Positions 3,380-25,274 of a stretch of DNA of 32,000 nt are shown here, in pieces; position 1 is the stretch's first letter; every line of letters begins with the position of its first letter. The translations under genes were made by a program, and so were the position numbers. The notes beneath the pieces are model-generated. The model had not been told where the DNA came from. It searched no databases and saw only the letters and a list, made by a program, of their open reading frames with translations. The stretch is taken from positions 90,001 to 122,000 of the forward strand of contig NC_014736.1 of the NCBI RefSeq assembly GCF_000172995.2, written 5' to 3'. Origin of the DNA: Halogeometricum borinquense DSM 11551. GTDB taxonomy: Archaea > Halobacteriota > Halobacteria > Halobacteriales > Haloferacaceae.

Positions 3380-5104
3380 ATGAGTGAATATCAGTCTCCA
3401 GGCGTTTATGTCGAAGAGGTCCAGAGCGGAAGCAAATCCGTCGAAGGAGTCAGCACTAGTACTGCTGGCTTCCTCGGCCAGACCGAACGCGGCCCGGTCG
3501 AACCCCGCCTTGTCACGAATTACGCCGATTTCGAGCGGCTCTACGGTGCGAGCCCGAAGTCCTCCGATCTTGATGCCGCTGTTGACGGGTTCTTCAAAAA
3601 CGGCGGTAGCCGCTGTTTCATCGGACGCGTCAGTGGTGCCGATATCGACGACGTAGCGACTGGCATCCTCGCAGACGACGAGGGCAACGAAATCGCCGAA
3701 GTCGAGGCCAACGGTCCCGGCCAGTGGGGCGAATCCGTCGCCGTCATCGTCGAAGACAGTCAGTACCCCAACCAGTTCGACATCACCGTTCGCTACTGGT
3801 CCGGCGACCTCGAAGCAGTCAGCAAGCCGCACGGCGACCGACCCGACCCGTCGCCTGACGTCGAAGAGGTCTACGACGGCCTGTCGGCTGATCCTGAGGC
3901 AAGCAACTTCTACGAGAAGCAACTCGAAAGCTCGGTTCTCGTGGACATCGAGTACAAAGACGACGGCACGCCCGTTGACGGCCTGACCTGGCTGCACCGC
4001 GACAGCCACCCCACCGCGTACTCCGACGGTGGTCTCGTCGAAACCGACGAAGAAGAGACGGTCGTTCACATCCCCGAGGACCTCGACGAACTCGAGCAGG
4101 AGAGCCTCGAAGGCATCGCCGAGCCTCTCGAAATCGAAATCGACGAGGACGCCGACAAAGACGACCTCGTCGTCGAACTCGAAGAGGTCCGCGAAGGCGA
4201 ACGAGACGTCGACGTCGAAATCGTCACCGAGAAGCCAGAGGCAGACGGCGAAGTCACCCTCAAAGACTACGAAGGTGTCAACAAGCCCGGTCTCCGAACC
4301 GGTCTCGCCGGCTTCAAAGCGATCGACGAAATTTCGATGGTCTGCGCGCCGGACGAGAACGACATCGACGGTCTGACTGACTCGATTGTCGCACACTGTG
4401 AGAACATGGGCGACCGCTTTGCGATTCTGCAGTCGCCGCAGAACCCCGGTCCGGTCTCCGAGATGGAGACGCCGGTCGATTCCTCGTACGCGGCATACTA
4501 CTACCCGTGGGTCAACGTGCTCGACCCCGTCACGAACCGAGAGAAACTCGTCCCGCCGGGCGGCCACATCGCCGGTATCTACTCGCGGACCGACCAGGAA
4601 CACGGTGTCCACAAAGCGCCCGCTAACGAGACGCTTCGCGGCATCGTCGGCCTCCAGCACAACATCACGAAGGGTGAGCAGGACGTCCTGAACCCGAAGG
4701 GTATCAACTGCATCCGCAGCTTCCAGGGCCGCGGTATCCGCGTGTGGGGTGCTCGTACCACGTCGTCTGATCCCGAGTGGAAGTACCTCAACGTTCGCCG
4801 CCTGTTCCTGTTCATCGAGCAGTCGATCCAGGAAGGCACGCAGTGGGCGGTCTTCGAGCCGAACGAGCAGGACACCTGGGGTCGGATCCGACAGTCTGTC
4901 ACCAACTTCCTCCGCACGGTCTGGCGGAACGGTGGCCTCCAGGGTCAAAGCGAAGACGATGCGTTCTACGTGAAGTGTGGCGAAGAGACGATGTCCGAGG
5001 ACGACATCGACAACGGACGCCTCATCGTCGAAATCGGTGTTGCGCCGGTCAAGCCCGCCGAGTTCGTTATCTTCCGCATCAGCCAGGATACCGAACAGGC
5101 ATAA
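3380..5104 (+). CDS. Contractile tail sheath protein (phage/eCIS sheath family, Afp2-4 / Cis2-like)
   Basis: 574 aa. The N-terminus MSEYQSPGVYVEEV is classic for sheath proteins. The C-terminal domain is also typical: INCIRSFQGRGIRVWGARTTSSDPEWKYLNVRRLFLFIEQSI...WAVFEPN...FYVKCGEETM...DIDNGRLIVEIGVAPVKPAEFVIFRISQ. It is followed directly by tube genes. Confidence 0.95.
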   Translation: MSEYQSPGVYVEEVQSGSKSVEGVSTSTAGFLGQTERGPVEPRLVTNYADFERLYGASPKSSDLDAAVDGFFKNGGSRCFIGRVSGADIDDVATGILADDEGNEIAEVEANGPGQWGESVAVIVEDSQYPNQFDITVRYWSGDLEAVSKPHGDRPDPSPDVEEVYDGLSADPEASNFYEKQLESSVLVDIEYKDDGTPVDGLTWLHRDSHPTAYSDGGLVETDEEETVVHIPEDLDELEQESLEGIAEPLEIEIDEDADKDDLVVELEEVREGERDVDVEIVTEKPEADGEVTLKDYEGVNKPGLRTGLAGFKAIDEISMVCAPDENDIDGLTDSIVAHCENMGDRFAILQSPQNPGPVSEMETPVDSSYAAYYYPWVNVLDPVTNREKLVPPGGHIAGIYSRTDQEHGVHKAPANETLRGIVGLQHNITKGEQDVLNPKGINCIRSFQGRGIRVWGARTTSSDPEWKYLNVRRLFLFIEQSIQEGTQWAVFEPNEQDTWGRIRQSVTNFLRTVWRNGGLQGQSEDDAFYVKCGEETMSEDDIDNGRLIVEIGVAPVKPAEFVIFRISQDTEQA

Positions 5105-5758: not shown

Positions 5759-6295
5759 ATGACGAATCAGACGCTCCAGACCGAATTCGAGTTCACCCTA
5801 CCGAAGGGGTACGTTGACGACGAGGGGACCCTCCACAAAGAGGGCCGAATGCGGCTTGCGACCGCCGCAGACGAGATTCAACCGCTGAACAACCCACGCG
5901 TTCAGTCAAACTCGTCGTATCTGACGATAGTGCTGCTCGCGCGGACGGTCACGGAGCTTGGCTCGCTCGATACCGTTGACGAAAGTATCATCCAGAACCT
6001 CTTCGTCTCGGATCTCGAGTACTTGCAGGCGATGTACGAGCGCGTCAACAACAGCGGTCTGAACGCGGTCGATACCGCCTGCCCAGAATGCGGTGAACCG
6101 TTCACCGTCGAAGTCGAAACCGGCGCACACGTCACCGGCGGGGCCAACGACGAGATGGCGTCGATGGATTCGGAATCCCCTGTCGATGATACAGACACCC
6201 AGTTCCGCGACATCTCGACGGTGTCTGACACGCCAGAAGACGCAGTCGAACCCGCCTCGGAGGAGGAAGCCGACACGGGAAATCCAGCCGAATGA
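5759..6295 (+). CDS. Putative CIS tail-assembly protein (conserved position between the two tube genes) with an acidic disordered C-terminal tail
   Basis: 178 aa. It begins FEFTLPKGYVDDEGTLHKEGRMRLATAADEI and carries a single CPECGEPF knuckle, followed by a D/E-rich tail. The position between tube genes matches the unnamed assembly or chaperone-like genes of bacterial eCIS loci. This is an assignment by context, not by a recognised motif. Confidence 0.65.
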   Translation: MTNQTLQTEFEFTLPKGYVDDEGTLHKEGRMRLATAADEIQPLNNPRVQSNSSYLTIVLLARTVTELGSLDTVDESIIQNLFVSDLEYLQAMYERVNNSGLNAVDTACPECGEPFTVEVETGAHVTGGANDEMASMDSESPVDDTDTQFRDISTVSDTPEDAVEPASEEEADTGNPAE

Positions 6296-6585: not shown

Positions 6586-7050
6586 ATGGCTGATAGCGCA
6601 AACACATCCAACAACAGCCCCTACGGACAGTACAACTTCGAGGTCGTGATCGACGGCGAGTCCGTCGCCGGCTTCTCGGAAGTCTCCGGAATCGCAATGC
6701 AGTTAGAGACCGTCTCGTACCAGGAAGGTGGCGTTGACGAGTACGTCCACCAACTCCCTGATCAGTTCGCACATGCGAACTTGGTCCTGCAACGAGGGTT
6801 GACGGACGACGTCACCTTCTGGGAGTGGATACAGGACGTGATGAGCGGCAACGTGACAAGAAAGAACGTGACGGTGAAAGTCCAAGAGAGTCACATGGGA
6901 CCGAACACGTGGGGCTGGCAGTTCCTCGGCGCGTACCCGACTACGTGGCGTGGTCCCGACCTCATCGGTGGCCGACAAGGCGGTGTCGCCATCGAGACCA
7001 TCGAACTCGCGTACAAGAAGTTCAACAAACTGTCCGGCGCGCCCAAGTAA
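6586..7050 (+). CDS. Second CIS/phage tail tube paralogue (T4 gp19-like, Afp5-like)
   Basis: 154 aa. YNFEVVIDGESVAGFSEVSGI...VSYQEGG...LPDQ..H.NLVLQRGL..D..FWEWI...VAIETIELAY is the canonical PF06841-type tube signature. Confidence 0.9.
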   Translation: MADSANTSNNSPYGQYNFEVVIDGESVAGFSEVSGIAMQLETVSYQEGGVDEYVHQLPDQFAHANLVLQRGLTDDVTFWEWIQDVMSGNVTRKNVTVKVQESHMGPNTWGWQFLGAYPTTWRGPDLIGGRQGGVAIETIELAYKKFNKLSGAPK

Positions 7051-7062: not shown

Positions 7063-7659
7063 TCACTCGCTATCGGGGTTTCGTTCTACACCGACATCAC
7101 GTTCGGCGATACGCGAGAATTCTGCTTCGTTGATCGACTGAATCATCACCGGCGACACTTCAACCGTAACTGACGGTTGATATGTGGCGTCGAACCGTGC
7201 CCAAAGAGAGAACACTTCGTCGAGCGGCGCATTCGTAATTGTGAGTCCGATTCGAGTATCCTGCTCGATTCCCTCAGTCTCTTCAGGTTCGAGTATGCCG
7301 ACGTCGTTGAGTGTCTGGAGGACGAGCCCAAGTGCCTGTTGTTGGCCGATAGTACCGGTGACGTTGTCTTCGTCATCTCTCGGATAGGCCGTCACCAGAT
7401 AGTCGATTGTAATCGGCAGCGGCGGGTCTCGTTTGGCCGACTCTCCGACCGGCGTCGTGTTCATCGATCCAACTGAACCGTCTTTCCGGACGCGATAGGG
7501 GTAGAACCCGATTCGAACAGTCGAGTTCGGGCCGATATCCGCCGGAGAAATCAGTTCGATCTCATCGGGTTCGACAGGAAGTTCCGGATAGTCGGCAGTC
7601 TCCTTGAGTAGGTCAACGAGCGCTTCGCTCACGTATCGAATTGCTTCGTAGGTCATCAA
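7063..7659 (-). CDS. DUF4255 / Pvc16-Afp16-like tail terminator (cap) protein
   Basis: 198 aa. It has the typical DUF4255 layout: N-terminal I..VSEALVDLL..., then RIGFYPYRVRKDG, PLPITIDYLVTAY, QQQALGLVLQTLND..IL, and C-terminal LDEVFSLWARFDATYQPSVTVEVSPV. Confidence 0.85.
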   Translation of the reverse strand: MMTYEAIRYVSEALVDLLKETADYPELPVEPDEIELISPADIGPNSTVRIGFYPYRVRKDGSVGSMNTTPVGESAKRDPPLPITIDYLVTAYPRDDEDNVTGTIGQQQALGLVLQTLNDVGILEPEETEGIEQDTRIGLTITNAPLDEVFSLWARFDATYQPSVTVEVSPVMIQSINEAEFSRIAERDVGVERNPDSE

Positions 7660-7750: not shown

Positions 7751-9931
7751 TCAGCGTCGATTCCGCCGTCGGCCGTCAGGTTCCTGTGCTGGTTCGACGA
7801 GCGCCTCGTCGTATGGCTCGAACTCCGATTTCCGGACGACGCGACCGGCATCCCGGTAATCTCGTTCGAGTACGCGAACAGCGTGTTTCATCTGGATCGA
7901 CTCGTCGCCACAACTGGCGGCCTCGACGGCGATTCGTTTGGCCAACGAGGCGATTTCGCCCCCGCTGAAGTCGAACTGTGCGAGCCACTCGGCGTCGATA
8001 CCGTCTGTCGGAGTCTCGTCGGGGAACGCGGCCTCCCAAATTGCCTCTCGCGTCTCTTCTTGAGGGTTCTCGAACCGAACTGTGTGGTTGATACGTCGCG
8101 TGAACGCTTCGTCAATATTGGACGCGTAGTTCGTCGTCAGGAGGATGACGCCGTCATAGGTTTCGATGCGCTGGAGGAGGTAGTTCACTTCCGCGTTGGC
8201 GTATCGGTCCGTTGCGTCCGACACCTCAGCACGGTCACCGAACACCGAATCCGCTTCGTCGAACAGAAGAATCGCGTTCGACTGCTCGGCCGCTTGGAAG
8301 ATCTGTTCGAGGTTCTCCTCGGTCTCTCCGATGTACTTACTCACCACACTCGACAAGTCGATCTTGTAGATGTGCATGCCCACCTCGTTGGCGAGCGCCT
8401 CGGCGGCCATCGTCTTCCCAGTCCCGGGCTTCCCCTTGAATAGGGCGACCACGCCAGCGTTCTTCTCCTTGTCACGGAAGCCCCAGTCATCGTAGATTCG
8501 GCCTCGATTCGAGATGTGTGCCTGAAGCTGATCGAGTTTCTTATCAGTCCGCTCCCGGAGCATGACCTCCTCACGAGCGATGGTCGGTGTGATCTGCTGT
8601 GCGAGATCGGCTAACTGACTGGAAGACTGGGCTCGGCATCCTTTCCGAACGTGTTCGACGGTCAGTTCGTCGCCGCCCGCAAGCGTGTTTGCGGCCGCCA
8701 GCGCGGACTCCATCTGCCCCAAGGTCAGATCGAACGTGCTGGCCATGCGTTCCGGATCAAGGTCGTCGGGGAGGTCGTCGGCGTGCGCCTGCCAGAACTG
8801 CCGCCGCAGCGGGATGGTCGGCCGGTCGAATCCGACGAGTGCATCGACTGGTTGCTGACTGGTTCCAGCAGGCGTCCAAGACGATTCGCCGAGCAGGAAC
8901 ACGTCGCTCACCACGGGATCGAACCGGTCGATGACGGCCGACAGCGACCGATCCCCGTCCGCACTCGCGCTCGTTGCCTCGTCTGCACCAGTGACCACGA
9001 CCGGTCGTGCTTGGAGGGCGGCCTCCCGGACGACCATATCGAGGATACCGGCCTCGAGCACCGCAGGGAGATCAACTTGTAAGTACGCCTCTTCCTCACA
9101 AAGGGCTTCAGCGGCACGCTGCGGGCCGCTCCCTCGGGGACCATGGAAGTACAGGCGACGTCCCGACTCTTCGCTATCGCGGAGCGATGCGAGTGTCGAA
9201 TACGTGCCGTCCTCGATGAGTAAGTCATCGAGTGTGGCGTCGGCGGTCGTCTCGGTGAGGAATGCATCGACTGCGTCGGCACTTTGAACACTGGACGGTG
9301 TTCTCAGCCCGGGATCAACTGTGCCGTGACCAAGTAAAAATGCGTAGATGCGGTCATCGACTCGGATCGAATAATCGAGTTTCGAGCCAGTCTGTCTGGT
9401 CCCCTCGGGAGGGTCAAGGACGAGCAGGCTGTACTCATGCAACGGTGAACCCTGTCCGAACAGTTCAGTTGCAGTCAGAAACTCGTCGGGCGTCGTCGAG
9501 AAGAGGTCGGCGACGAGACGGACCGTCGGTCGCTGTTTGCTCGCATCGTTTTGCAGTTCGCTAAATAGTTCAGTACCGGCGGGATCAACGTCAGGAAAGA
9601 GTGCGAGTAACAGGGCATCGAGATGCTGTCTGGTGAGATCGAACGCGTCAGCGAGGGTTTGGAGACGCAGATCGACACCCGCTTCGGTAGCGGCCCGCCG
9701 CTTCTTCTCTATTCGTGTCCGATATCGTTCGAGGTCATCTCGTGCATGTTCGGGGACGACCAACTGAGTTGCCGATGGCGAAGCGTGCGACTCATTCGAT
9801 TGTAGTCGTTCGACCAACCCGAGTTGCGAGCGCGGAAGTTCCGCGTGACGATCACCGAGGAATTCGCGCAGGAGGTAATCGAGACACCCGAGTTCGTCCA
9901 GCAGATGATCTATCGTTCCCTCGTAACTCAT
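7751..9931 (-). CDS. CIS-associated AAA+ ATPase (Afp15/Cis15-like)
   Basis: 726 aa. It has Walker A GKPGTGKTMAAEALA, Walker B ILLFDEADSVFG, sensor/arginine-finger region VILLTTNYASNIDEAFTRR, and a long non-ATPase N-terminal domain. It lies directly upstream of the cap gene on the same strand. Confidence 0.95.
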   Translation of the reverse strand: MSYEGTIDHLLDELGCLDYLLREFLGDRHAELPRSQLGLVERLQSNESHASPSATQLVVPEHARDDLERYRTRIEKKRRAATEAGVDLRLQTLADAFDLTRQHLDALLLALFPDVDPAGTELFSELQNDASKQRPTVRLVADLFSTTPDEFLTATELFGQGSPLHEYSLLVLDPPEGTRQTGSKLDYSIRVDDRIYAFLLGHGTVDPGLRTPSSVQSADAVDAFLTETTADATLDDLLIEDGTYSTLASLRDSEESGRRLYFHGPRGSGPQRAAEALCEEEAYLQVDLPAVLEAGILDMVVREAALQARPVVVTGADEATSASADGDRSLSAVIDRFDPVVSDVFLLGESSWTPAGTSQQPVDALVGFDRPTIPLRRQFWQAHADDLPDDLDPERMASTFDLTLGQMESALAAANTLAGGDELTVEHVRKGCRAQSSSQLADLAQQITPTIAREEVMLRERTDKKLDQLQAHISNRGRIYDDWGFRDKEKNAGVVALFKGKPGTGKTMAAEALANEVGMHIYKIDLSSVVSKYIGETEENLEQIFQAAEQSNAILLFDEADSVFGDRAEVSDATDRYANAEVNYLLQRIETYDGVILLTTNYASNIDEAFTRRINHTVRFENPQEETREAIWEAAFPDETPTDGIDAEWLAQFDFSGGEIASLAKRIAVEAASCGDESIQMKHAVRVLERDYRDAGRVVRKSEFEPYDEALVEPAQEPDGRRRNRR

Positions 9932-10015
9932 TGTCTAAAGTCGAGGTGTCGCAGTAATAATAGTTCTGCGAGATATATTTTGTATATTCAGTTTAGGAAC
10001 AAACAGTTATATAGG
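9932..10015. promoter_or_regulatory. Divergent AT-rich promoter region between the AAA+ ATPase gene and the DUF4157 effector gene
   Basis: 84-nt AT-rich spacer. TATATT at 9983-9988 lies about 28-33 nt upstream of the ATG at 10016. On the other strand, TATTATT (9963-9957) lies about 26-32 nt upstream of the ATG at 9931. Both fit leaderless haloarchaeal promoter geometry. Confidence 0.4.
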
Positions 10016-11344
10016 ATGGCTATCAAGTTTGCAGTAAGAATGAGATTTCGGTCTGCGAACGAGCGGACGACTCCGAGCAAAGAGTCCTCGTCCGTTCCGT
10101 CTATTCAAGAGCTGACGGGAGGCTCGAATCGAAATCAGAGTCGTGGTGGTGGTTCGCTAACACCCCAAGAGTGTGAATCTCGCTTCGGGGTAGAGATCTA
10201 CATGGACGGGCTGGATACGAAGATTCAGCGACTAGCCAAGAAACACGGCGCAGATCAAGTTCGGCAGTGGGCCGACGAAGGCATGACCGTCGATACGATG
10301 GGCAAGCCACGCGACATGCGCGCGTTCCGCCAGCGCCAGAAAGAACGGCCCGCGGAAGTCCCGAAAGACATCGAACGCCGGAACGCTAAATCCGTCCAAC
10401 GCAGTCGCGGCGCGCATCACGAAGCAAGCAAGGCTGGTGACGCGAACGTGCCCGACTCAGTGCGAGACGTGATTTCCTCGCCCGGCCAGCAACTCGACAC
10501 GAGCATCCAGCGCGCGATGGAAGATCGGATGGGCGACAATCTGGGCGATGTACGCGTCCACACGGGTCCATCGGCCGCGAAAGCGTGTGAAGACATCAAC
10601 GCCCGCGCGTTTACCGTCGGCAATCACATCGCGTTCAACCACGGCGAATACGATCCGAGTTCGGCGGAAGGCCAGCATATTCTCGCCCACGAGTTAGCGC
10701 ACGTGCGCCAACAAACCGGTGGCGCGGTGTCGATGCTCCCCCAAGAGGGTTCGTTAGAAATTGATCCTGACCCACGCTTAGAGCGGGAAGCCGAAGAAAC
10801 CGCCCAGCGCGTGATGCAAGGCGGAAAGATTGGCGTGCATCGCATGGAGCACTCCGACGTGCACGTTCAGCGGACGCCCGCAGAGGTAAGCGTCGAGAAC
10901 AACTACGCAGGAATTCGAGAACTCAAAGAGGAAGTTTCGGAGCTCAAGGAAAAGGTGAATTCGGGATGGTCGGAGAAAGTGGCAGGTGGCATGGCAGCCG
11001 TGGGATCGAGTGCCGCAGTCGCTGGGACTCGGGCCGCTCTCGAATCAGACCTCGCTCAAACCATTGAGGGGGGTGAAACGCTATCGAAGATGATCCCCCA
11101 CGCTGGTGAAATAATGGCTCACCATCCCGAAGTGACGGCTGCGGTTGGACTGACCGCAGTCGCAAGCGGAGGCCTCTACGGGGCGCAGCAGGCTGTCGAT
11201 GGCTCCGGAATATTTGACCGCATCGGCGATGGCGTTAAGAGTGCCTTCGGCCACGTGAAGAGCAAATTCAGTCGCAAAGACGAATCCGAGCGTGAGGAAG
11301 AAGAAAGAGAGGAGGACAGTGGTTGGTTCTCAGGACTAAACTAA
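10016..11344 (+). CDS. Full-length DUF4157-domain (HExxH, zincin-like) CIS effector candidate with a coiled-coil plus Gly/Ala-rich hydrophobic C-terminal module
   Basis: DUF4157 signature: LDTSIQRAMEDRMGDNLGDVRVHTGPSAAKACEDINARAFTVGNHIAFNHGEYDPSSAEGQHILAHELAHVRQQ. The track ORF starts at 9824 but overlaps the ATPase gene, so I chose the first ATG after the promoter (10016). The ATG at 10202 is an alternative, because third-position GC rises only after about 10200. Confidence 0.85.
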   Translation: MAIKFAVRMRFRSANERTTPSKESSSVPSIQELTGGSNRNQSRGGGSLTPQECESRFGVEIYMDGLDTKIQRLAKKHGADQVRQWADEGMTVDTMGKPRDMRAFRQRQKERPAEVPKDIERRNAKSVQRSRGAHHEASKAGDANVPDSVRDVISSPGQQLDTSIQRAMEDRMGDNLGDVRVHTGPSAAKACEDINARAFTVGNHIAFNHGEYDPSSAEGQHILAHELAHVRQQTGGAVSMLPQEGSLEIDPDPRLEREAEETAQRVMQGGKIGVHRMEHSDVHVQRTPAEVSVENNYAGIRELKEEVSELKEKVNSGWSEKVAGGMAAVGSSAAVAGTRAALESDLAQTIEGGETLSKMIPHAGEIMAHHPEVTAAVGLTAVASGGLYGAQQAVDGSGIFDRIGDGVKSAFGHVKSKFSRKDESEREEEEREEDSGWFSGLN

Positions 11345-11351
11345 ATTATCA

Positions 11352-12287
11352 ATGAATGGAAATATAATCGGCGAAGACGAAAAAGGGGTGGCACTGTTCG
11401 TGGAGGATAATAGTGGCAACGAGCATGAAATCGGAGTAAACTCTGAAGGAGATATATTCCACCATGCAGATAATGTTATCCCAGACAACCCCTCTGAACG
11501 AAGTGATAAGGAAGATGAAACCTTCTCGCAAGTCCGCCGGTTCGCCCGCTATCACGTCTACCGCGAGAAAGGATACGATACCATCCCCACAGACGAGAAT
11601 CCAGACCGAATCGCTGCGGTCTTGCTGGCCATTATAGACCTCGACGACGAGGAGTTCGAGAACCGCTTCAAACCACTGTACAAGCAGGTCATGAGCCATG
11701 AGCGTCCGGACGTGGAGCCGTCACTGGACCTTCCAGATTCGGTCTACCACGGAGGAGAACCCTGCTACAAGCAGAATATCTACCTCGAAGAGAGCTTGGA
11801 GGAAATGAAAAGTACAGTGAGCGAACAACTGGTCGAGAGTATCGGCCAAGAGCAGATTACGGAAGTACTCCAAGCGGATAGCGGTGATTTCTTCTCAAGA
11901 GCAGCGTCGTTGTTCGGCGGCCCGAACGGCAACTACGGGGGCCTCACTATCGACGGAATCTCCGGAATCGACACGGTACATCTCGTGGACGGGAAGGAAC
12001 AGACCATCAAGAGTGATGACCCCTTCGAGCGCGGGCCTGACGCTCGTCTGGAGTTATACCCCTCGAATTTCGACTTTGAGGCCTTCCGGTTCTACATCGG
12101 ATACAACCTCATCTGCCAAATCAGAGATTGCTTCATCGGCATGGGTGTCGAACCACCAGCACAGTATCGGGTTCTCGGCCCCGGTAAGGACAAGTACACC
12201 GGCAAATACCACGCGTTCGACTTCTATCCCGAATACCACAATCCCGGGGCGACCATTCCGGGCTACATCCGTCCAGCCCCGATATAA
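11352..12287 (+). CDS. Effector-linked partner protein 1 (uncharacterised family; candidate immunity, chaperone or adaptor)
   Basis: 311 aa. It starts 7 nt after the effector stop. It is a paralogue of 13216-14178 and 639-1637, sharing RFARYHVYREKGYDT, NPDRIAAVLLA, YKQN.YLEESL and ICQIRDCFIGMGVEPPAQYR.LG.GK.KY..KY..FDFYP.Y. Confidence 0.85.
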   Translation: MNGNIIGEDEKGVALFVEDNSGNEHEIGVNSEGDIFHHADNVIPDNPSERSDKEDETFSQVRRFARYHVYREKGYDTIPTDENPDRIAAVLLAIIDLDDEEFENRFKPLYKQVMSHERPDVEPSLDLPDSVYHGGEPCYKQNIYLEESLEEMKSTVSEQLVESIGQEQITEVLQADSGDFFSRAASLFGGPNGNYGGLTIDGISGIDTVHLVDGKEQTIKSDDPFERGPDARLELYPSNFDFEAFRFYIGYNLICQIRDCFIGMGVEPPAQYRVLGPGKDKYTGKYHAFDFYPEYHNPGATIPGYIRPAPI

Positions 12288-12372
12288 CTTGAACTCTCCC
12301 CTCAGTTACATCGGATACTCTTGAACACGAAACGATGAAGCAACGTCGCAGAGATGATTAGGAGGGCATCTA

Positions 12373-13212
12373 TTGACCCACGAACTCGCACACGTCCGCC
12401 AACAAACTGGTGGCGCGGTGTCGATGCTTCCCCAAGAGGGTTCGTTAGAAATCGATCCCGATCCGCGCTTAGAACGGGAAGCCGAAGAAACCGCTCAGCA
12501 GGTCATGTCGGACGGACCGGTCGTGCTTAGTCGGATGGGAATGGACGTTCACATCCAGCGGGCGGCAAGCGGATATCACGGAACTCGGCGGGCTACCAAA
12601 GAGGACTGGCAGACGCCCGGGACGAGCGAGTCAGCACACGAAACGCTGTCGGCCGACGAACTCTCAAAGCGAGTTGCCGAACTCGAACAGCAGGTTCAGG
12701 CCAACGAAAAACGCGCTAAGCAGAACAACGAAGGCCTATCCAACGTTCAAGAGGAGCTCAATACGAAAATTGAGGAGAACACGAAAACGCTGGAGAACCA
12801 TGCCGAACAGCTTGGCACTACCAACGAGAAACTGAGCGATCTCAAAAGCGAGGTAGACAGTGGGATCGGAGAGACAGTAGCGGGAGTCATCGGTGGAGGT
12901 ATCGGCACTGGGATAACAGCCCTAGGTCGGGCAGCGACAACCGACACTATACAACAAGGAATCGAAAACGGGAATGCTGTCCTTGACACGCTGGGACCGA
13001 TTGGTGACGCGATGGCCGCGCATCCGGAAATGGCAGCCACTGCGAGTGCAGCCACTATGATGGCATTCACTGTCAGCGCGGCAGGCATTGGTTCCAAAAA
13101 ACTATTCGAGCAAATCAAAGAGCGCTTCTTCGGAGACAAAACCGACGAAGACGAACGGCGCGAGGAAGATCAGACAGACGAAGAAGATGACAGTGTTCTT
13201 GGTATTTTCTAA
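12373..13212 (+). CDS. 5'-truncated orphan DUF4157 effector module that begins at the HExxH motif and carries a diverged C-terminal module
   Basis: The frame opens after the stop at 12355-12357. The only start is TTG at 12373, preceded by GGAGG (12361-12365). The product begins (M)THELAHVRQQTGGAVSMLPQEGSLEIDPDPRLEREAEETAQ, identical in protein to residues of the full-length copy. It then diverges into a coiled coil, GGGIGTGITALG, AAHPEMAA and an acidic tail. Confidence 0.7.
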   Translation: MTHELAHVRQQTGGAVSMLPQEGSLEIDPDPRLEREAEETAQQVMSDGPVVLSRMGMDVHIQRAASGYHGTRRATKEDWQTPGTSESAHETLSADELSKRVAELEQQVQANEKRAKQNNEGLSNVQEELNTKIEENTKTLENHAEQLGTTNEKLSDLKSEVDSGIGETVAGVIGGGIGTGITALGRAATTDTIQQGIENGNAVLDTLGPIGDAMAAHPEMAATASAATMMAFTVSAAGIGSKKLFEQIKERFFGDKTDEDERREEDQTDEEDDSVLGIF

Positions 13213-13215
13213 GAT

Positions 13216-14178
13216 ATGAAAGGAGAGATTGAGGGAATTACAGATGATGGTATCGGCGTGAGAGTTATTGATAAAAATGGTTTCGAGCATAAAATCGAGA
13301 TGCTCTTTGATGGAGAGATAGTTTATCATCATCAGAAGGGCTATCCAGATAACCCGAAGGAGCGCACAAACGAAGAGGACGAAAGCGTTGCCCAAGCCCG
13401 CCGGTTCGCCCGCTATCACGTCTACCGCGAGAAAGGATACGACACGGTTCCAAACCCGGACAACCCCGACCGGATTGCGGCAGTCTTGCTAGCCCTTATC
13501 GGACTGGACGATCAGCAGTTCGACCAGTACTTCGGGATGCTGTACGAGCAGATGGCGAGTCACGAGCGAGCGGACGTGGCTCCCGTATTGGACCTCCCGC
13601 AGGAGGTGTATTCTGAAGAATTCATCGTCTACAAACAGAACGTCTACCTCGAAGAGAGTCTCGACGCTATGCAGGACCAACTCACACAACCGGCAACCGA
13701 GGTTTTCGGGGAGGAGAACCTTCAGGAATTCCTCCAAGAGACCGGGGACGGTCTAGTGGCAAAGGCTCGCTCGTTGGTCGGCGGAGGGACAGACGAGGAT
13801 GAAGATGCGTCCGAGGAACCATCCATCCCCGAAGCAGATCTGTCAATCGCGGACGTGTCGGGACTCGACACGATGTACAGTACGCCAGAGGGATACAAGA
13901 CCATCGAGGGCGAGGACCCGGTCAGTCGTGAGCCAGACGCTCGCATCGAGACGCTCCCGATGGGATACACTCGTGAGCAGTTCCGGTACCACGTGGGTCA
14001 CAATCTGATCTGCCAGATTCGGGATTGCTTCATCAGTATGGGTGTCGAACCGCCAGCCCAGTATCGGCTCTTAGGCCACGGGAAATTCAAGTACTCCGCG
14101 AAGTACCGCGACTTCGACTTTTACCCCGACTACTGGGACTACGAGGCCAACATCCCTGGATACAGCTCCCCAGTATAA
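13216..14178 (+). CDS. Effector-linked partner protein 2 (paralogue of 11352-12287)
   Basis: 320 aa. It starts 3 nt after the orphan effector stop. It has the same motif set as partner 1; the middle region is more acidic and divergent. Confidence 0.85.
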   Translation: MKGEIEGITDDGIGVRVIDKNGFEHKIEMLFDGEIVYHHQKGYPDNPKERTNEEDESVAQARRFARYHVYREKGYDTVPNPDNPDRIAAVLLALIGLDDQQFDQYFGMLYEQMASHERADVAPVLDLPQEVYSEEFIVYKQNVYLEESLDAMQDQLTQPATEVFGEENLQEFLQETGDGLVAKARSLVGGGTDEDEDASEEPSIPEADLSIADVSGLDTMYSTPEGYKTIEGEDPVSREPDARIETLPMGYTREQFRYHVGHNLICQIRDCFISMGVEPPAQYRLLGHGKFKYSAKYRDFDFYPDYWDYEANIPGYSSPV

Positions 14179-14320
14179 CCTTCAAGAAGGTCAGTCCGTT
14201 TTCTACAGCGAACTCCCAGGTAGAACCAATATGCGTCGAGAGCGCAACAACACATCCCAGCCGACGACAACGAGAGTGATTCTGCTGGTACCTATAAAAC
14301 CGAATCAAAATCCCTGGATT

Positions 14321-14798
14321 CGCGAGTTAGCGCACGTGCGCCAGCAAACGGGTAGTGAGGTGTCGATGCCTCCTCAAGATGAGTTGGTGATTGGGCCGAC
14401 CAACGCTTAGAGTGCGGACTGAAGAAGCCGCCCGGCAAGATACCACGGAACTCAACGGGCTACCAAAGAAGACTGGCAGACGCCCGGAGAGTGAAGCGAC
14501 ACGCGAAACGCTGTCGGGTGACGAACTCCCAAAGCGGGTTGTCGAACTCGAACAGGTGCAAGGCAACGAAAAACGCGCCAAACAGAACAACAAAGGGCTG
14601 TCCAACGTCCAACAGGACCTCTGTTCAGCGACGCTGGGGCTGCGACTGATGATGAAGCTGATGCGCAGCGTGAGCGAAATCAGACCGATGGTGCATCGAC
14701 TACCTTCTGGTGATTTCGATGGAAGCAACCACTGTCAGAAGACGAAGTCGATGCAAGTGTCAAGATCACTTTGGACGAGTGAAATGTCTCGACAGTAA
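14321..14798 (+). pseudogene. Eroded third cassette: DUF4157-junction/effector remnant with stops, frameshifts and an internal deletion, plus a stub of a partner-gene 5' end
   Basis: 14323 onward reads ELAHVRQQTGSEVSMPPQDELVIGPTNA*. Shifted frames then give YHGTQRATKEDWQTPGE* and ESEATRETLSGDELPKRVVELEQVQGNEKRAKQNNKGLSNVQQDL, matching 12570-12750 of the orphan copy. An acidic tail-like FSDAGAATDDEADAQRERNQTDGASTTFW* follows (stop at 14711-14713). Five nt later there is an ATG (14719), and a shifted frame reads SEDEVDASVKITLDE, resembling the partner N-termini GEDEKGVALFVEDN. Confidence 0.7.
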
Positions 14799-14814
14799 TT
14801 ACAAGTAGCTCTCA

Positions 14815-14845
14815 TTTTTTAGATTGAGAATCAGACCGGATTCTC
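14815..14845 (+). terminator. T6 run followed by a 7-bp-stem hairpin (GAGAATC-N6-GATTCTC) at the end of the effector array
   Basis: TTTTTT at 14815-14820. Arms at 14826-14832 and 14839-14845 are exact complements. Oligo-T tracts are the usual archaeal termination signal. Confidence 0.3.
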
Positions 14846-15970
14846 GGTCACGGCTGTCGACAGTTTGCTGAGTGAGTCAAAAGCCAATTGCTGATAGAAC
14901 TTCGGTGTCGTCACCAACACTCTGTAACTGAGTTCGTATTCGGGGAGACTAACATGGTGGTCGAACTATCTCAATATCCTTACTATGACGAAGAAGTGAA
15001 ATTTATTCGATATAGCAATGACGCACTTTTCGAGTTGAGCAAAGAGATGGCCCCATCCCCGATGATCTCCCACACTGATATCCAATCGTGGTACTCTGAG
15101 AACTCGGACACCGATCGCGTGCCGTGAAAGGTCACACGAGGCGCGACTTTACCTGACAGACATTTTATTTGATCGGCGGCGACAACCCACGTGTGCACCG
15201 CTCGCTTCGATTTTTGAGTTAGTCGTGAAATCGCCTTGTTCGTCGGTTTCAACGTCGGCGACAGTATCTCAAGTCCAACATACTCCGGCAATTGCACGAA
15301 AGTATGTTCAGATATTATGATATTCCTTTGATATTAAACTCGTTATTCTGAATAGATGACACAGACGGAAGACGGCGAAAACAACTGAGTACAGCCACCA
15401 CCTAGACGTTGTTCACGGAGCTTCGAAGTCCGCCAGCAAACTAGCGGAACAAATAATACCGGAATATCAGCAACCGCTGTCCTATCGTAGTCCGATTATC
15501 ATATCTTGTATACTGAGACGGATGAATAACAGCCATTCATTCTAGCCTGACTAGTAAAATACTTGAAATGTGAGCGGCGTTCTGCAGTACAATGCTCTGT
15601 TGACCCCGATAGAGAACCCCCGACTGCTTCCAGCGGTGAGTATCGTTCCAATAGAAGTCTGAACAGGAAATGGTCCCGACTACGCTACGCTCGACCCCCT
15701 CAGAGCCAGTCGTTTTTTCACTGTTCCTGGACAAGTATCGATCATGCATTACGGTCCTACTTTTGTAATACTGTAATTTTACACCTGGCTTTCAAAATTT
15801 CAGTTATACTGAAACAAATAGCCGGATCGATACGACATCTGGATTGCTCATATTGCGGAGAACAGGTCAGCGGGTGGGGATGAGTCGTCAGAGGGCGAGA
15901 TGCAAGGAAAAGGTCAAACTCTGAGCGAAAGCCGCATTAGTGGAGAGATCTGGAATCATTGTGTGACTCA

Positions 15971-16897
15971 TCAGTCCATGACTGCAGTAAAGACATCTTC
16001 GAGAGACTGGGTCTCCGTCTCGAAGTCCACTACCTCTATGCCGGCCTCAGACAGCGCGATTACGACGTCAGAACGAACGTCAGTCCGAGAGCATTTGACA
16101 CAGATATCTGACTCACTGATCCAAGCGTCCGTAACACCGTCGATCATCTCAACCGTCTCTGGGACACGCTCAGGCGTCGAATTAACGTTTATCCTTATTG
16201 TTGGACCCTCGTTCGCCTGTCCGAGAAGCTCTTCCATCTGCGCTTCCCTAACCAAGCTCCCGTCTTTTATGATTTCGACCCGGTCGCAAACCGCTTGCAC
16301 GTGCCCCAGTTGATGCGAGGAGAAAAAGACTGTCGCTCCCTTCGTGTTCTCCTCCTCAATTATCTCTTTGACCCGGGCGGCACCCAACGGATCAAGGCCC
16401 GCAATCGGCTCATCGAGGATGAGCAAATCCGGGTCTCCAACTAGTGCCATCGCAAGTCCAAGTCGTCGAGTCATACCACGTGAGTATCCTCCAGCCTTCT
16501 GCTCGGCGTCATCGGCAAGTCCAACCCGTTCAAGATAACCGAGGGGCTCGTCTTCATTATGGAGCTGGCAGGCCAACTCCACGTGGCGCAGTCCGGATAA
16601 CTTCGGATATGGCGTGAATCCTTCTGAGAGGATTCCTGTTCGGTTCTTGATTGTGAGTTCGTCCGTCTGAGGGTCATGACCAAACACTCGAACCCGTCCG
16701 CTGGAGGGCCTGAGGAAGTTCACCAACATCCCAATCGTAGTCGTCTTTCCCGCTCCATTCGGCCCGAGAAATCCGTATATCTCACCACGGGAAACGCGCA
16801 TGTCTAACTCGTTCACTGCGGTAACATCTCCGAACGTTCTGGTCACGTCTGTGAGCCTAATCGCAGCGCTATCTGTCGTCGGCGTTGTCTCAGTCAT
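15971..16897 (-). CDS. ABC transporter ATP-binding protein (ABC-2/DrrA-like subfamily)
   Basis: 308 aa. Walker A GPNGAGKTTT, signature-like YSRGMTRRLGLAMAL, Walker B LLILDEPIAGLDP, H-loop FFSSHQL. Confidence 0.93.
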   Translation of the reverse strand: MTETTPTTDSAAIRLTDVTRTFGDVTAVNELDMRVSRGEIYGFLGPNGAGKTTTIGMLVNFLRPSSGRVRVFGHDPQTDELTIKNRTGILSEGFTPYPKLSGLRHVELACQLHNEDEPLGYLERVGLADDAEQKAGGYSRGMTRRLGLAMALVGDPDLLILDEPIAGLDPLGAARVKEIIEEENTKGATVFFSSHQLGHVQAVCDRVEIIKDGSLVREAQMEELLGQANEGPTIRINVNSTPERVPETVEMIDGVTDAWISESDICVKCSRTDVRSDVVIALSEAGIEVVDFETETQSLEDVFTAVMD

Positions 16898-16899
16898 GG

Positions 16900-17865
16900 T
16901 TATTGATCAACCTCCATCCCTTCGATTCGCTTCCAAGCGTATAGTAGTGGACACACAATCCAGAGCAAAAGCACCAAACCAGCAATTGGCCACGAGAAGT
17001 ACACTGGCGGGTCCAGCGATACCATCCCGGTTGACATAAAGCCCTGTCCAAAGCTATCGACTTGTCCAACAGCGATCTGATATAATTTCGGGATCATTTC
17101 TTCGTGGGGCGCAGCAACGAGGACGAGATACGCTTGAGTGGGATCTAAAATCATCCCCGATGGGAATACTCCGACGAGACCGAGAATATACGATTGCAAA
17201 CCGACGAAAACGTTGACAATCACAAAAGTAACGACCATCGATACTCGCCGAGCCGTAGAGAACGAAACAGAGAGCGCAATCCCGATACTCAGCCACGCGA
17301 GTCCGTAGGCTACCGTCGAAGCTGAAAACGCGAGATAGCTCCAGACCGATGCAGTCTCGAAGTTATTTGTGATTCCAATCCAGCCGACGGCCAACGCCAC
17401 AACTAACGCCAACACGAAAACGGCGATTCGACCGAGAGACATCCCGAGTAGAATTTCCTGACGCGAACAGGGCAGCGATAACATCGTCCGTATCTGTCCC
17501 TTCGTTCGGAGATTAACAATCGTCGCGTAGCCGAGCAGCAACCCGACTATCGGAATGAGAAATACGAACGAGTGAAAGTGCCAAGTGGTGTCAACAAACC
17601 CGAAGATAGCGTAGACGGCATCAACCGTCTCGGGTTTGGTGAGAATCATATAGTATGAGCTCCTCGTAGCTGCAGTCCCATCCAAAACGTCCACGTCCGT
17701 CCCGATACGCCAAGATGAGAACATCAAAAACGCAAACAGGACGAGCACTGATTTCGATTTGAACAGACGACGGCCCTCCAAGCGCGCCAAGGCACTCATT
17801 GTCCGCTTGCGTATCGCTGTCTCGCCAATTAATACCCATTCTCTACTAGTGTTGTCAGACATCAT
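16900..17865 (-). CDS. ABC-2 family permease
   Basis: Multi-TM protein with the ABC-2 motif region NLRTKGQIRTMLSLPCSRQEILLGMSLGR. The track start at 17922 overlaps the upstream gene by 61 nt. I prefer the ATG at 17865-17863, which forms an ATGA overlap with the upstream stop. The gene ends 2 nt before the ATPase start. Confidence 0.8.
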   Translation of the reverse strand: MMSDNTSREWVLIGETAIRKRTMSALARLEGRRLFKSKSVLVLFAFLMFSSWRIGTDVDVLDGTAATRSSYYMILTKPETVDAVYAIFGFVDTTWHFHSFVFLIPIVGLLLGYATIVNLRTKGQIRTMLSLPCSRQEILLGMSLGRIAVFVLALVVALAVGWIGITNNFETASVWSYLAFSASTVAYGLAWLSIGIALSVSFSTARRVSMVVTFVIVNVFVGLQSYILGLVGVFPSGMILDPTQAYLVLVAAPHEEMIPKLYQIAVGQVDSFGQGFMSTGMVSLDPPVYFSWPIAGLVLLLWIVCPLLYAWKRIEGMEVDQ

Positions 17866-18716
17866 TCGAACACCTCGTTCCGAAACTGGAGGAAGCCGAC
17901 GGCGGTTGGAAGGATAATCCAACCCAGAACGACAACGGCAGCCAAAGGAAGTGAGAGCAGTTGTGGTGGCAAAAATGCGAGTGGTGAGTACATACCGTCA
18001 AATAGCGAGATCAAGAAACGCGAGTACGCCTGCAAAGGGTGAACGATAATGAGCCAAGACTTCTGCGACAAGAGTAAAACGGGGGTGAAGAGTAACGCAA
18101 AACCTCCTCCAATGACTCCGATAAGTCCCTGATTCCGCGTCGAAACAAGGGCAGAGAGGGCAATTGCTGGGGAGAGTAGTGCGATCCCGTATCCGATAGT
18201 GAGCGTGCCCGCAACGAGGAAAGAGCCGGCACCAAACTTCGATCCCGTTAGCAGCAGTCCAATTCCACCGACGGCAACCCCGATACAGATCATGGAAGCA
18301 AAGGCGGCTATTCGTGTAATCACCTTGCTGAGATAGATATCACGACGAGTCACCGGAAGCGACCCGAGACACGAGAGGTTTCCTCGTTCGCGGTCGTCGA
18401 TGAGTACTCCATACCCGAACAAAAACGCTAGAAACGGGAGCACGAGAGAAGCGAGGTCTACTACCTGAAACCAGAAGCGACTCGCTACGGTGTGCCCTGA
18501 GTCAAGCACGAGAACCGGTAAGAAAACCTTGGATGATGTCTCTGCAGTGACTGACGACACAACTGCAAGGACCATAACGCCAACAACGCAAAGTGCGATG
18601 ATCCAACTCAGCAAAGAACGAGCGAGCAACGCACCCTCGACTCGGATGAGAGCAAATAGCCGTCGCCGAAACGGTAAAGCTCTCGGGGGAGTGTTACTGG
18701 TATGCTCAGCGTGCAT
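17862..18716 (-). CDS. ABC-2 family permease
   Basis: 284 aa with about 6 predicted TM segments and the motif DDRERGNLSCLGSLPVTRRDIYLSKV. It is the first gene of a permease-permease-ATPase operon. Confidence 0.8.
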   Translation of the reverse strand: MHAEHTSNTPPRALPFRRRLFALIRVEGALLARSLLSWIIALCVVGVMVLAVVSSVTAETSSKVFLPVLVLDSGHTVASRFWFQVVDLASLVLPFLAFLFGYGVLIDDRERGNLSCLGSLPVTRRDIYLSKVITRIAAFASMICIGVAVGGIGLLLTGSKFGAGSFLVAGTLTIGYGIALLSPAIALSALVSTRNQGLIGVIGGGFALLFTPVLLLSQKSWLIIVHPLQAYSRFLISLFDGMYSPLAFLPPQLLSLPLAAVVVLGWIILPTAVGFLQFRNEVFE

Positions 18717-18848
18717 GAAAATGCATTCACATGTTACCAGTATATCAGTTATGGTTACAAATATTTGTCAGAGATTGTGGTGATTCCGTAGCGCAATCTC
18801 TTGAGAATTACTCGATATTATTTTTTCACCAAGACAAGTAAAATCGGA

Positions 18849-18874
18849 TTCCCGGCTAGTGTCTCAGCCAGGAA
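18849..18874 (-). terminator. Imperfect hairpin (TTCCCGGCT-N8-AGCCAGGAA) downstream of the Tat-secreted protein gene
   Basis: 9-nt arms with one mismatch, followed on the minus strand by a short T run (GATTTTAC). It sits in the 193-nt gap before the ABC operon. Confidence 0.25.
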
Positions 18875-18909
18875 ACACCGTTTCTCCGATAAACCGGTGA
18901 TTATTCAGG

Positions 18910-19890
18910 TTACCAGAATTTGGTACCTACATCCCACTTGAGCAGGTATCTGATCGCTTCGTTGAAAGCTCCATAGTGGTCAGCTGAACCGCTGATTTTC
19001 ACCGTTGTGTCGTCTTTCCAAAACACATCGGCTTCGTGATCCGCGTTCGTTTTGGGAATGACCGGGAAGTCCTTGTTCCAGAACGACGCCGTCTGATGCA
19101 GTTCCCCACCAGACTTCGAGTAATCGTAATCCTCGGTGTGCCAAGTGGTGTTGAAAGAATCAGGAACACTGCAGTCAATAACTTCGTCGGGGCAAGGGAA
19201 CCGGTCTCCGAAGGATTCACCGTCACAGGCGGCCCCGTCCACGGTGTTCGTGACTAACGAGTGATCCCCGAACTCGTAGTGATCCGAATTCCAATCGTTG
19301 TTCCAGACGCTAGTTGACCGAACTAGGGTTCCACATTCACTGGAGTTTGTCTCAACCCAGGCACCTCCGTCCCAATTGTCGCCGTAATCCGGGTCCGATA
19401 GACCCTGAGTATTGATCCCTTCGCCGCCAATTTGGACATCCGCGACGCTCTTTTCTTCGATTGAGAAGTTATCTTTGTCAAGCGTGTCAACACCCTCGCT
19501 GGTATCGGAAGCACTGACAGCCTTCTCAGCTGCATCGGGGTCAAGCGACAATGAATACCGTACTCCAGCCGGGTTATCCGAAGAATCCGAATCGGGTTCA
19601 GGCACGTCGTAAGCCAGATCGATATGTGCCCGGGACTTCACGACGTCTCCAGCCTGAACAAATACGACCGAAGCCTGTTCCAAGTTGTCCTTGTCACTCG
19701 TATCTAACTCGATCTTGTTGAGGACTTTCTCACCGTTCTCATTTTCTTTTTTCTTCCCTTTGTCATTCTGTGCTGCCGCAGAAGAGATCCCAAACATGGT
19801 TAGGGAGGACGCAGCACCAATACTGCGGAGGACTGATCGGCGATCGACACATCGGCTGGATGTCTCCTTTCGTGACATCAAGCTAACCAT
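18910..19890 (-). CDS. Tat-signal secreted protein of unknown function with a Cys- and Trp-rich C-terminal domain
   Basis: 326 aa. Twin-arginine signal SRCVDRRSVLRSIGAASSLTMFGISSAAA, then a K/E/N-rich linker, then a C-terminal domain with 5 Cys (ECGTL...AACDGESFGDRFPCPDEVIDC) and many W/D/N residues. The alternative start ATG at 19878 gives MSRKETSS... Confidence 0.75.
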   Translation of the reverse strand: MVSLMSRKETSSRCVDRRSVLRSIGAASSLTMFGISSAAAQNDKGKKKENENGEKVLNKIELDTSDKDNLEQASVVFVQAGDVVKSRAHIDLAYDVPEPDSDSSDNPAGVRYSLSLDPDAAEKAVSASDTSEGVDTLDKDNFSIEEKSVADVQIGGEGINTQGLSDPDYGDNWDGGAWVETNSSECGTLVRSTSVWNNDWNSDHYEFGDHSLVTNTVDGAACDGESFGDRFPCPDEVIDCSVPDSFNTTWHTEDYDYSKSGGELHQTASFWNKDFPVIPKTNADHEADVFWKDDTTVKISGSADHYGAFNEAIRYLLKWDVGTKFW

Positions 19891-20070: not shown

Positions 20071-20283
20071 AGTCACGCATCAGAATCATCTTCCGAATTT
20101 GTACTGGTGGTCATCAAGTTTTGGATGATGATAATCGGCTGGTCAACCGGCATCTACATCACTCCGTTGGAACCAGAATAGAACTTAATTCAATCCAGAT
20201 TCTATTTGATCACTTCCGACCACGAGTCTATACCTACCGACGGCGGACCTGTAGCAGATCACACTGACAATTAATAGATTTAT

Positions 20284-21558: not shown

Positions 21559-21610
21559 GGCTCTGTTGAAATCCTTAGTAAGCTACATTTCCAGTCGGTA
21601 GTTTGAGTAG

Positions 21611-22431: not shown

Positions 22432-22466
22432 CCAGTCAATGCAGGATGAAAGTATCATAGAACAGC

Positions 22467-22718: not shown

Positions 22719-22864
22719 AGAAACATGTTTTTCCGTCTATACAAGTACTTTCGGTGATGATTGTCCACACCTCTTGACGGAGAGATGAACGGTAACTACG
22801 CAGTTCCCATCTACCGACTGTTTCATTCTACATTGTGTATGAAGAATAGGATTTCAACAGAGCC

Positions 22865-22960
22865 GGCGCAGTCAAATCTAGCGGTAACGAGACCAACGGA
22901 TTCGGTGCCGGTCGGATTGATGTTCTTAATACAATAAACACTTACTTAGAAAACAAATAA
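22865..22960 (+). pseudogene. 3' end of the IS-interrupted S8 protease gene
   Basis: Removing the IS and one copy of the duplication restores the frame: ...IKKGAV-KSSGNETNGFGAGRIDVLNTINTYLENK*, with TAA at 22958-22960. GFGAGRIDV..... is the conserved C-terminal element of subtilases. Confidence 0.85.
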
Positions 22961-22979
22961 CTGATGCAGCTTAGTTAAC

Positions 22980-25269: not shown

Positions 25270-25274
25270 TCTGC

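Follow-up and report, generated by a model that had tools for sequence, protein, structure and literature searches.

Why should a full-length toxin gene at the border of an archaeal contractile injection system (CIS) be followed by toxin-like modules that lack their own beginnings? The question is raised by a 32,000-nucleotide (nt) stretch of Halogeometricum borinquense DSM 11551 (NC_014736.1, positions 90,001 to 122,000; "the window", numbered from 1), which is part of plasmid pHBOR03 and borders the published CIS ("archaeal T6SS", type VI secretion system) cluster of this organism. A sequence-only reading of the window had described three tandem units between 10016 and 14798, and all three were recovered in the open reading frame (ORF) map: a full-length "head" toxin gene with its partner (U1 and P1), an intact orphan module with its partner (U2 and P2), and a decayed module (U3), all on the + strand. 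The window very probably contains a DUF4157 ("PVC-metallopeptidase") polymorphic-toxin locus attached to the H. borinquense CIS, with spare cassettes that recombine at a conserved junction.

The head toxin and its partner

Unit 1 was identified as Hbor_38900 plus Hbor_38910, since the cloning primers in the supplement of the published work (Sci Adv 2024, PMC11566945) matched the window exactly: the Hbor_38900 forward primer (ATGGCTATCAAGTTTGCA) at 10016, and the Hbor_38910 reverse primer as the reverse complement of 12266-12285. Hbor_38900 (U1; 10016-11344; 442 amino acids, aa) started at the ATG at 10016 inside ORF 9824-11344 and encoded the full-length head toxin. Boundaries based on hidden Markov models (HMM) divided it into an N-terminal domain (NTD; ~10016-10462), the half of the peptidase domain preceding the HExxH motif (10463-10678), the junction, from HExxH to HVQR (10679-10873), and CT1, the variable C-terminal (CT) toxin module with an acidic tail at its end (10874-11344). 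PF13699, the core domain of extracellular CIS (eCIS; DUF4157), matched residues 159-236 (E 9.3e-32; 109.5 bits vs. a cutoff of 22), in agreement with the complete DUF4157 domain claimed for this unit. After a spacer of 7 nt, Hbor_38910 (P1; 11352-12287; 311 aa), located by its ORF and the primer match, encoded the immunity/partner protein, a member of DUF7958 (PF25858).

Secretion of Hbor_38900 depends on the T6SS/CIS, according to the comparison of the wild-type and cis2::novR secretomes, and of the nine proteins listed in the CIS-dependent secretome, four are structural components and five contain DUF4157 (PMC11566945). Hbor_38900 is toxic in H. volcanii, where it is not maintained unless the downstream gene is co-expressed, and together with Hbor_38910 it constitutes one of six toxin-immunity pairs (PMC11566945). 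The relationship between toxin and neutralising partner which the sequence-only reading had implied therefore holds for unit 1, by published experiment.

Among the 120 relatives of U1 listed, many proteins from H. borinquense and other haloarchaea matched only over the N-terminal ~50-70%, and some carried other C-terminal toxin domains: PF14410 (GH-E nuclease), PF14424 (deaminase) and PF11429 (colicin D). In PLSDB, which does not include pHBOR03, the sole match, of 79% identity along the N-terminus, was to a plasmid of Haloferax larsenii.

A junction conserved at the protein level

Units 1 and 2 shared a direct repeat (10675-10825 vs. 12366-12516; 83% nt identity), a third copy of which started at 14310, and the junction peptide matched three places of the window in tblastn searches (E 1e-25, 2e-25 and 8e-06). 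The 40-codon junction said to be shared was upheld by codon-by-codon comparison of 10688-10807 with 12379-12498: 14 of the 40 codons were changed, all 14 synonymously, leaving the protein identical (synonymous divergence, dS, 0.63; non-synonymous divergence, dN, 0.011; Nei-Gojobori over 40 codons). The copies are thus old and have not been recently homogenised, yet their protein sequence is strictly conserved. Conservation ended in a sharp boundary at HVQR. The junction, of ~130-195 nt, is under selection for its protein sequence.

Downstream of the junction, CT1 and CT2 (the C-terminal module of U2) shared about 33-36% aa identity, and P1 and P2 shared 50% (E 2e-101). The C-terminal modules and partners had been described as diverged, which is correct, but they are clearly homologous and do not belong to unrelated families. 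The spacers upstream of U2 and U3 were also considered as decayed peptidase-coding sequence, in which case selection would set in at the TTG; this was rejected, as local alignments were no better than shuffles, indicating true breakpoints upstream of both modules.

The intact orphan, U2, and the decayed orphan, U3

The spacer between P1 and U2 (12288-12365), unrelated to peptidase-coding sequence, is followed by U2 (12373-13212; 279 aa), an orphan module with a TTG start whose protein begins LTHELAHVRQQ. Its junction (12370-12561) led into CT2, and a spacer of 3 nt separated it from P2 (13216-14178; 320 aa), the DUF7958 partner of CT2. Both the NTD and the first peptidase half were absent from U2, and PF13699 gave no match to it, just the last ~15 model positions being kept; it is therefore devoid of everything N-terminal to HExxH, as had been stated. 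The module kept the three zinc ligands of the peptidase, those of HExxH and of the Glu helix. Ungapped DNA homology was detected from 12366, and in-frame aa similarity may start about 5 codons upstream of the TTG (compared by eye, EGQHILAHEL in U1 vs. LGGHLLTHEL in U2), the latter stretch directly following an in-frame TGA.

A Shine-Dalgarno-like AGGAGG (12360-12365) was present 7 nt before the TTG of U2. The TTG was kept in three strains, and the AGGAGG was degraded to CGGAGC in the other two. No promoter-like AT-rich element was found ahead of U2. The module was annotated as a gene in GCA_000337855.1, and its dN/dS with respect to the head copy of the sister assembly GCA_004150395.1 (described below) was 0.25; U2 and P2 are intact and under purifying selection. 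U2 was not among the CIS-secretome proteins of PMC11566945.

U3 (14310-14798), a decayed orphan of CT2 type, was recognised from direct repeats, tblastn and frame translations as fragments in several frames. It comprised a junction remnant (14323-14431), in which HExxH now reads RELAH, and a CT remnant to 14621 with 84-92% nt identity to U2; the alignment with U2 was reliable over 14310-14621 only (74-92% nt identity). Several indels, a 67-nt deletion and the change of the first His of HExxH to Arg mark its decay, confirming the breakage that had been reported. The acidic tail, 5-nt spacer and partner stub attributed to U3 are plausible by eye only: past 14621, a putative acidic tail (..DDEADAQRERNQTDGASTTFW, then a stop) ending in FW and the stop codon, a spacer of 5 nt and a stub at 14743-14798 could be made out, all too short for testing.

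Head and orphan modules change places in sister strains

Three further H. borinquense assemblies carried the locus or pieces of it: GCA_004150395.1 (L004), GCA_040679015.1 (L002) and CP048739 (L003). In L004, whose flanks matched the window at 97-99.8%, a contiguous stretch of 1,159 nt contained a complete eCIS_core domain running in frame into CT2 (97% nt identity), followed by a P2-like gene (90% aa identity), the U3 remnant and the ABC transporter genes; no CT1-P1 cassette was found at this locus. The L004 junction was a mosaic, U1-like at its 5' end and U2-like from about window position 10760 (equivalent to 12450) on, which places the crossover inside the junction. A strain in which the unit 2 C-terminus is fused to a complete DUF4157 domain, the kind of fusion that the sequence-only reading had advised looking for, was therefore found, which speaks against the truncated copies being only decay products never joined to a head.

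The converse arrangement was seen in L002, which matched the window at 97.6% identity between 2539 and 10876, a point just beyond HVQR, and then continued into a different CT with its own DUF7958 partner. Next came a CT1 homologue (95% aa identity), 5'-truncated at U1 residue ~158 and accompanied by a P1-like gene (86%). An orphan starting LTHELAHV (65% identity to U2) and its partner followed, then a DUF7958 gene on its own and the U3 equivalent, in which the retained part of the peptidase domain is about 110 nt longer. Orthology with the window resumed exactly at 14323, the HExxH of U3. CT1 and CT2 thus each serve as the head in one strain and stand as an orphan in a different one, which is the signature of displacement. 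These natural variants, L004 and L002, support the claim that the expressed C-terminus is displaced by recombination.

L003, on the CP048739 chromosome, carried a different DUF4157 toxin, then a broken P1-like gene (94%), then the window-type spacer and a U2-type junction. The block formed by the 12288-12365 spacer and the U2-type orphan was found in two other strains and, judged from these sequences, the cassette block moves between DUF4157 loci. An independent draft of DSM 11551 (GCA_000337855.1, L001) encoded an identical P2 protein and, from P1 through the ABC genes, agreed in gene order and lengths. Position 1 of L001 corresponded to window position ~10733, so that the draft contig breaks in the junction part of U1, in keeping with a multi-copy repeat made up of the DUF4157 N-terminus plus junction in this genome; short-read assemblies will tend to fragment at such repeats and so to under-report arrays.

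Truncated modules in other haloarchaea and a second array

One genome per species was scanned with a DUF7958 profile, giving 74 haloarchaeal loci, and HMMs for the two halves of the peptidase domain detected 151 junction copies in them, 147 of which could be classified: 89 with the complete domain, 28 with a partial first half and 30 with no first half (the other 4 were at contig edges). Fifty-eight of the 147 were thus 5'-truncated, the usual order being the full gene first and the truncated copies after it. A DUF7958 gene was present within 2.5 kb downstream of 44 of these 58; the remaining 14 had no downstream partner. HExxH was tried as a universal breakpoint and discarded: the 58 truncation starts were spread over positions 7-103 of the 138-position domain, and only 11 fell at 73-79, a bin inflated by the HMM border. 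The statement that orphans begin exactly at the HExxH motif accordingly applies to the U2/U3 lineage but not as a rule, other orphans starting at many points; the shared upstream spacer indicates a single origin for the U2/U3 lineage.

A very long array, the most extreme one seen, was a side observation in Halomicrobium katesii DSM 19301 (NZ_KB905379.1). It had about nine junction copies in a row; the peptidase domain was complete in most of them, and after each copy came a DUF7958 gene, in several cases a split one.

The "interspacing region" of GCA_040679015.1, between two CIS sub-clusters and upstream of the equivalent of the window (positions 10001-19837 of a second locus of this assembly, L006), was found to be a second array. 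It consisted of a 500-aa full DUF4157 gene with a DUF7958 gene, then three modules, each with a DUF7958 gene after it; two of these orphans were 5'-truncated, at residues ~28 and ~23 of the 72-residue first half, and the third had no junction match. In the corresponding region of DSM 11551, Hbor_38760, with no predicted DUF4157, is toxic alone and rescued by its partner, and the text of the same paper treats the genes of this region only as "hypothetical" genes and toxin-immunity pairs (PMC11566945). Hbor_38760 may be such an orphan module.

The DUF7958 partner family and the C-terminal modules

PF25858 (DUF7958) was the precomputed assignment of P1, P2, a third gene of the window (639-1637) and all 50 homologues. 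P1 and P2 had no match in the Pfam-A copy scanned, which may be without the PF25858 model, and an HMM built from 33 DUF7958 members matched all three window genes (E 1e-89 or better). The AlphaFold2 (AF2) model of P1 was confident (pLDDT 87, pTM 0.88), and a Foldseek search of it vs. the PDB returned nothing at E <= 0.001, indicating that the DUF7958 fold is not represented among solved structures.

The third gene (639-1637, - strand; 332 aa) encoded a lone DUF7958 paralogue without a toxin module upstream (27% identity to P1; tblastn E 2e-25). It lies at the edge of the "interspacing" region, and an identical protein is carried by a Logan contig of a public run (L005); the next gene downstream of its homologue was ParA/ArsA-like in L005 and L006 (GCA_040679015.1). 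It may be an orphan immunity gene ending the "interspacing" array.

For the C-terminal modules, comparison with Pfam at E <= 5 gave noise only, and a homology search with CT2 alone found two proteins only, its sensitivity being limited by the word index. The AF2 model of U2 (pLDDT 49.8) was confident only in a coiled coil (residues 94-162). A coiled coil of variable length, long in CT2, was common to the modules, as were the conserved motif V[HN]SG..EK, an acidic tail and two segments that are rich in Gly/Ala and moderately hydrophobic (Kyte-Doolittle 1.1-1.35). With such segments, CT1 may be membrane-active, which would fit the reported lysis phenotype.

Surroundings of the array

The CIS cluster (Hbor_38640-38890) sits on a 210-kb plasmid (PMC11566945). 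Pfam matches in the window identified its sheath gene (3380-5104), a gp19-like tube gene (6586-7050), a Pvc16_N gene (7063-7659, - strand) and the AAA+ ATPase gene (7751-9931, - strand), which is divergent from U1. Two further proteins of the cluster were without a Pfam match: one of 415 aa (1860-3107, + strand), encoded directly upstream of the sheath gene, and one of 178 aa (5759-6295, + strand), encoded between the sheath and tube genes.

The region upstream of U1 (9932-10015, + strand) was AT-rich (67%), with TATA-like elements, and was the sole promoter-like AT-rich stretch of the array. A T6 run (14815-14820) follows just after U3; it is the only + strand T run of at least 5 between 9900 and 15100. 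The array may therefore be a candidate for one transcription unit, extending from upstream of U1 to this run. Between the array and a convergent ABC transporter operon, 14800-15970 was GC-poor (0.47-0.48 vs. ~0.55 nearby), had no ORF longer than ~100 aa and was free of toxin- or partner-gene remnants.

Farther downstream, a segment of ~7.6 kb (window ~20100-27700) was missing in GCA_004150395.1, which joins window position 20097 to 27707. It contained an S8 peptidase gene (20284-21291), a DDE transposase fragment and ABC-2 transporter genes (23395-26174), and its right edge adjoins an IS4-like transposase fragment (ORF 27134-27442, with a ..RRWQIESEYKSIKN.. motif). Insertion-sequence (IS)-like sequence at 27184-27723 recurred inverted, with 87% identity, at L003 11243-11782 (CP048739 chromosome), directly 3' of the orphan junction remnant; mobile-element remnants thus flank toxin arrays.

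Proposed mechanism and alternative explanations

In the mechanism proposed here, the head protein would probably be loaded through its N-terminal region; in AlgoCIS, cargo loading needs the disordered stretch that precedes DUF4157, and DUF4157 itself is dispensable (2026 preprint). The zincin-like peptidase domain would release the toxin, with processing near HVQR, and the head protein would deliver CT1, which is toxic and which P1 neutralises. U2-P2 would be a displaced or spare cassette made up of the second peptidase half, CT2 and its own immunity gene, and U3 an older, decayed one. With the junction as homology patch, recombination would delete CT1-P1 and fuse CT2 to the head; alternatively, an incoming CT/immunity cassette would insert at the junction, the resident tip being pushed downstream. 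Because its loading region is absent, U2 should be undeliverable until recombination at the junction joins it to the head. P2 could provide immunity against neighbours deploying CT2, and such neighbours exist. The toxicity of CT2, its neutralisation by P2, the expression of P2 and a membrane target are predictions of this mechanism.

Several points weigh against recombining spare cassettes. Scaffold gaps of 10 N lie just upstream of the 1,159-nt stretch of L004, leaving the far N-terminus of the fused gene unverified, and the absence of CT1-P1 elsewhere in the GCA_004150395.1 genome is not proven. No recombination event was directly observed, and the strain sequences would fit either direction, deletion or insertion. 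CT1/CT2 and P1/P2 are homologous families, and part of the array could be local duplication. U2, as an intact ORF with a Shine-Dalgarno-like AGGAGG and a conserved TTG, may be translated and not silent. Finally, the CT fold is without a confident model (AF2 pLDDT 50), and DUF7958 is without a PDB fold match.

The possible translation of U2 leads to an alternative compatible with the proposed mechanism, and rather unlikely as the explanation of the orphan: an independently expressed toxin/immunity pair read from the TTG at 12373, and not a silent reservoir. The 279-codon ORF, the AGGAGG 7 nt before its start, the TTG conserved in three strains, the gene call in the NCBI annotation and the dN/dS of 0.25 all agree with it, as does the toxicity of Hbor_38760 expressed alone (PMC11566945). 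The degraded CGGAGC in the other two strains and the lack of a promoter-like AT-rich element before U2 do not, nor does the missing NTD, the part AlgoCIS needs for loading; U2, without a DUF4157 match, is not in the nine-protein CIS secretome, and its low dN/dS could be inherited from time as a head copy. It is very unlikely that the array arose by local tandem duplication followed by neutral decay, leaving truncated copies as unused junk. U3 is clearly decaying, the C-terminal modules and partners of units 1-3 are of the same families, and 14 of 58 truncated copies elsewhere stand without a downstream partner, but U2 and P2 are intact under purifying selection, CT2 heads a complete gene in one sister strain and CT1 is an orphan in another, a dS of 0.63 without aa change at the junction speaks against both recent in-situ duplication and neutrality, and the P1-spacer-U2 block is present again on a chromosome, at a DUF4157 locus unrelated to this one (CP048739).

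That the repeats are an artefact of assembly or annotation is hardly credible: a draft of DSM 11551 does break its contig inside U1 near the junction, and the L004 scaffold has gaps in the N-terminal repeat, but many substitutions separate the copies, other strains and genera have syntenic arrays, and the independent draft GCA_000337855.1 agrees in its identical P2 and, between P1 and the ABC genes, in the length and order of the genes. Haloarchaea are highly polyploid. A further, quite speculative extension, to which a low probability is given, is that the orphans are not passive, U2 being translated and acting in trans (e.g. by pairing or competing with the head peptidase half), or that genome copies in one polyploid cell carry different head tips, which would give a mixed, switchable arsenal with the array as one transcript to the T6 run at 14815.

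Implications

Spare cassettes recombining at the junction would carry the principle of orphan cassettes over from bacterial polymorphic toxins to an archaeal CIS that is amenable to experiment, and array switching would explain the differences in CIS arsenal between H. borinquense strains. DUF7958 is suggested as a haloarchaeal immunity-like partner family, of which only Hbor_38910 was matched in this analysis to a tested partner, and further functional toxin/immunity pairs, such as U2/P2, are predicted. The "interspacing region" of PMC11566945 is suggested to be a second toxin array, as seen in GCA_040679015.1. The HVQR boundary and the retention of the HExxH-to-HVQR half by orphans offer a handle on the role of DUF4157, with HVQR as a candidate processing site; this half is possibly required to stay matched to the toxin.

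Part of this was already on record: the concept of DUF4157 polymorphic toxins, their occurrence in H. borinquense, and the toxin/immunity nature of unit 1. The sequence-only reading had presented the organisation as one not known to be described; DUF4157 toxins in this species (2012) and the unit 1 gene pair (2024) were already published. No description of orphan arrays, strain-level switching or the DUF7958 partner family was found in the literature searched, Makarova et al. 2019 (mBio) lying outside it. The text of PMC11566945 does not treat the loci as polymorphic-toxin arrays, "orphan" and "polymorphic" occurring only in its reference list, nor does it discuss units 2 and 3, the junction that the units share or the switching between strains. 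Possibly new are the organisation in orphan cassettes, the location of the junction within the peptidase domain, the natural head/orphan switching and the DUF7958 partner family.

Comparison with known polymorphic toxins

The locus combined a conserved N-terminal region and a variable CT with an adjacent immunity gene and orphan modules sharing a homologous patch, as polymorphic toxins do (sensu Zhang/Aravind 2012; Jamet & Nassif 2015), and the natural variants (CT2 as head in L004, CT1 as orphan in L002) point to replacement of the C-terminus. As in Rhs, CdiA and MafB systems, a full gene is followed by 5'-truncated modules with their own immunity genes (PMC4436062; Koskiniemi et al. 2014 as cited there), head and orphans share a homologous patch, strains differ in the expressed tip, and the toxin precedes its immunity gene (PMC4436062). 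The sequence-only reading had likened the layout to the orphan CT/immunity arrays of Rhs and CdiA, and U2, U3, L002, L006 and many loci from the GTDB genomes agree with it.

The locus works like these families without being a member of them. A Pfam scan of U1 and U2 gave PF13699 (U1) and weak coiled-coil noise only, with no RHS/YD, filamentous haemagglutinin (FHA)/VENN or MafB N-terminal domains; the RHS/YD and filamentous-haemagglutinin repeats of Rhs and CdiA were absent, as were the demarcation motifs VENN and PxxxxDPxGL. Instead, the NTD plus the DUF4157 zincin-like domain form the trafficking part, and the patch is the HExxH-to-HVQR half of the latter. The system belongs to an archaeon and relies on a membrane-anchored phage-tail-like CIS for delivery, and the evidence for switching comes here from strain comparison.

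The closer relatives are toxins of PVC and eCIS type. DUF4157 was named "PVC-metallopeptidase", with a proposed autoproteolytic release of the toxin, in a study that also named H. borinquense as having several PVC-metallopeptidase toxins with variable C-termini (Zhang et al. 2012, PMC3482391), and it is an eCIS core/toxin marker (Geller et al. 2021, PMC8213781). Like these toxins (PMC3482391, PMC8213781), the head protein carries an N-terminal DUF4157 with HExxHxxQ...E and a variable CT, and is encoded beside CIS genes; a difference is that neither its CT nor its DUF7958 partner matched a curated family of toxins or immunity proteins in the Pfam-A copy searched. Many PVC-type toxins are without adjacent immunity genes, and neighbouring stand-alone cassettes are rare in effector systems of this kind (PMC3482391), whereas in the array described here a partner accompanies every unit and orphans are common.

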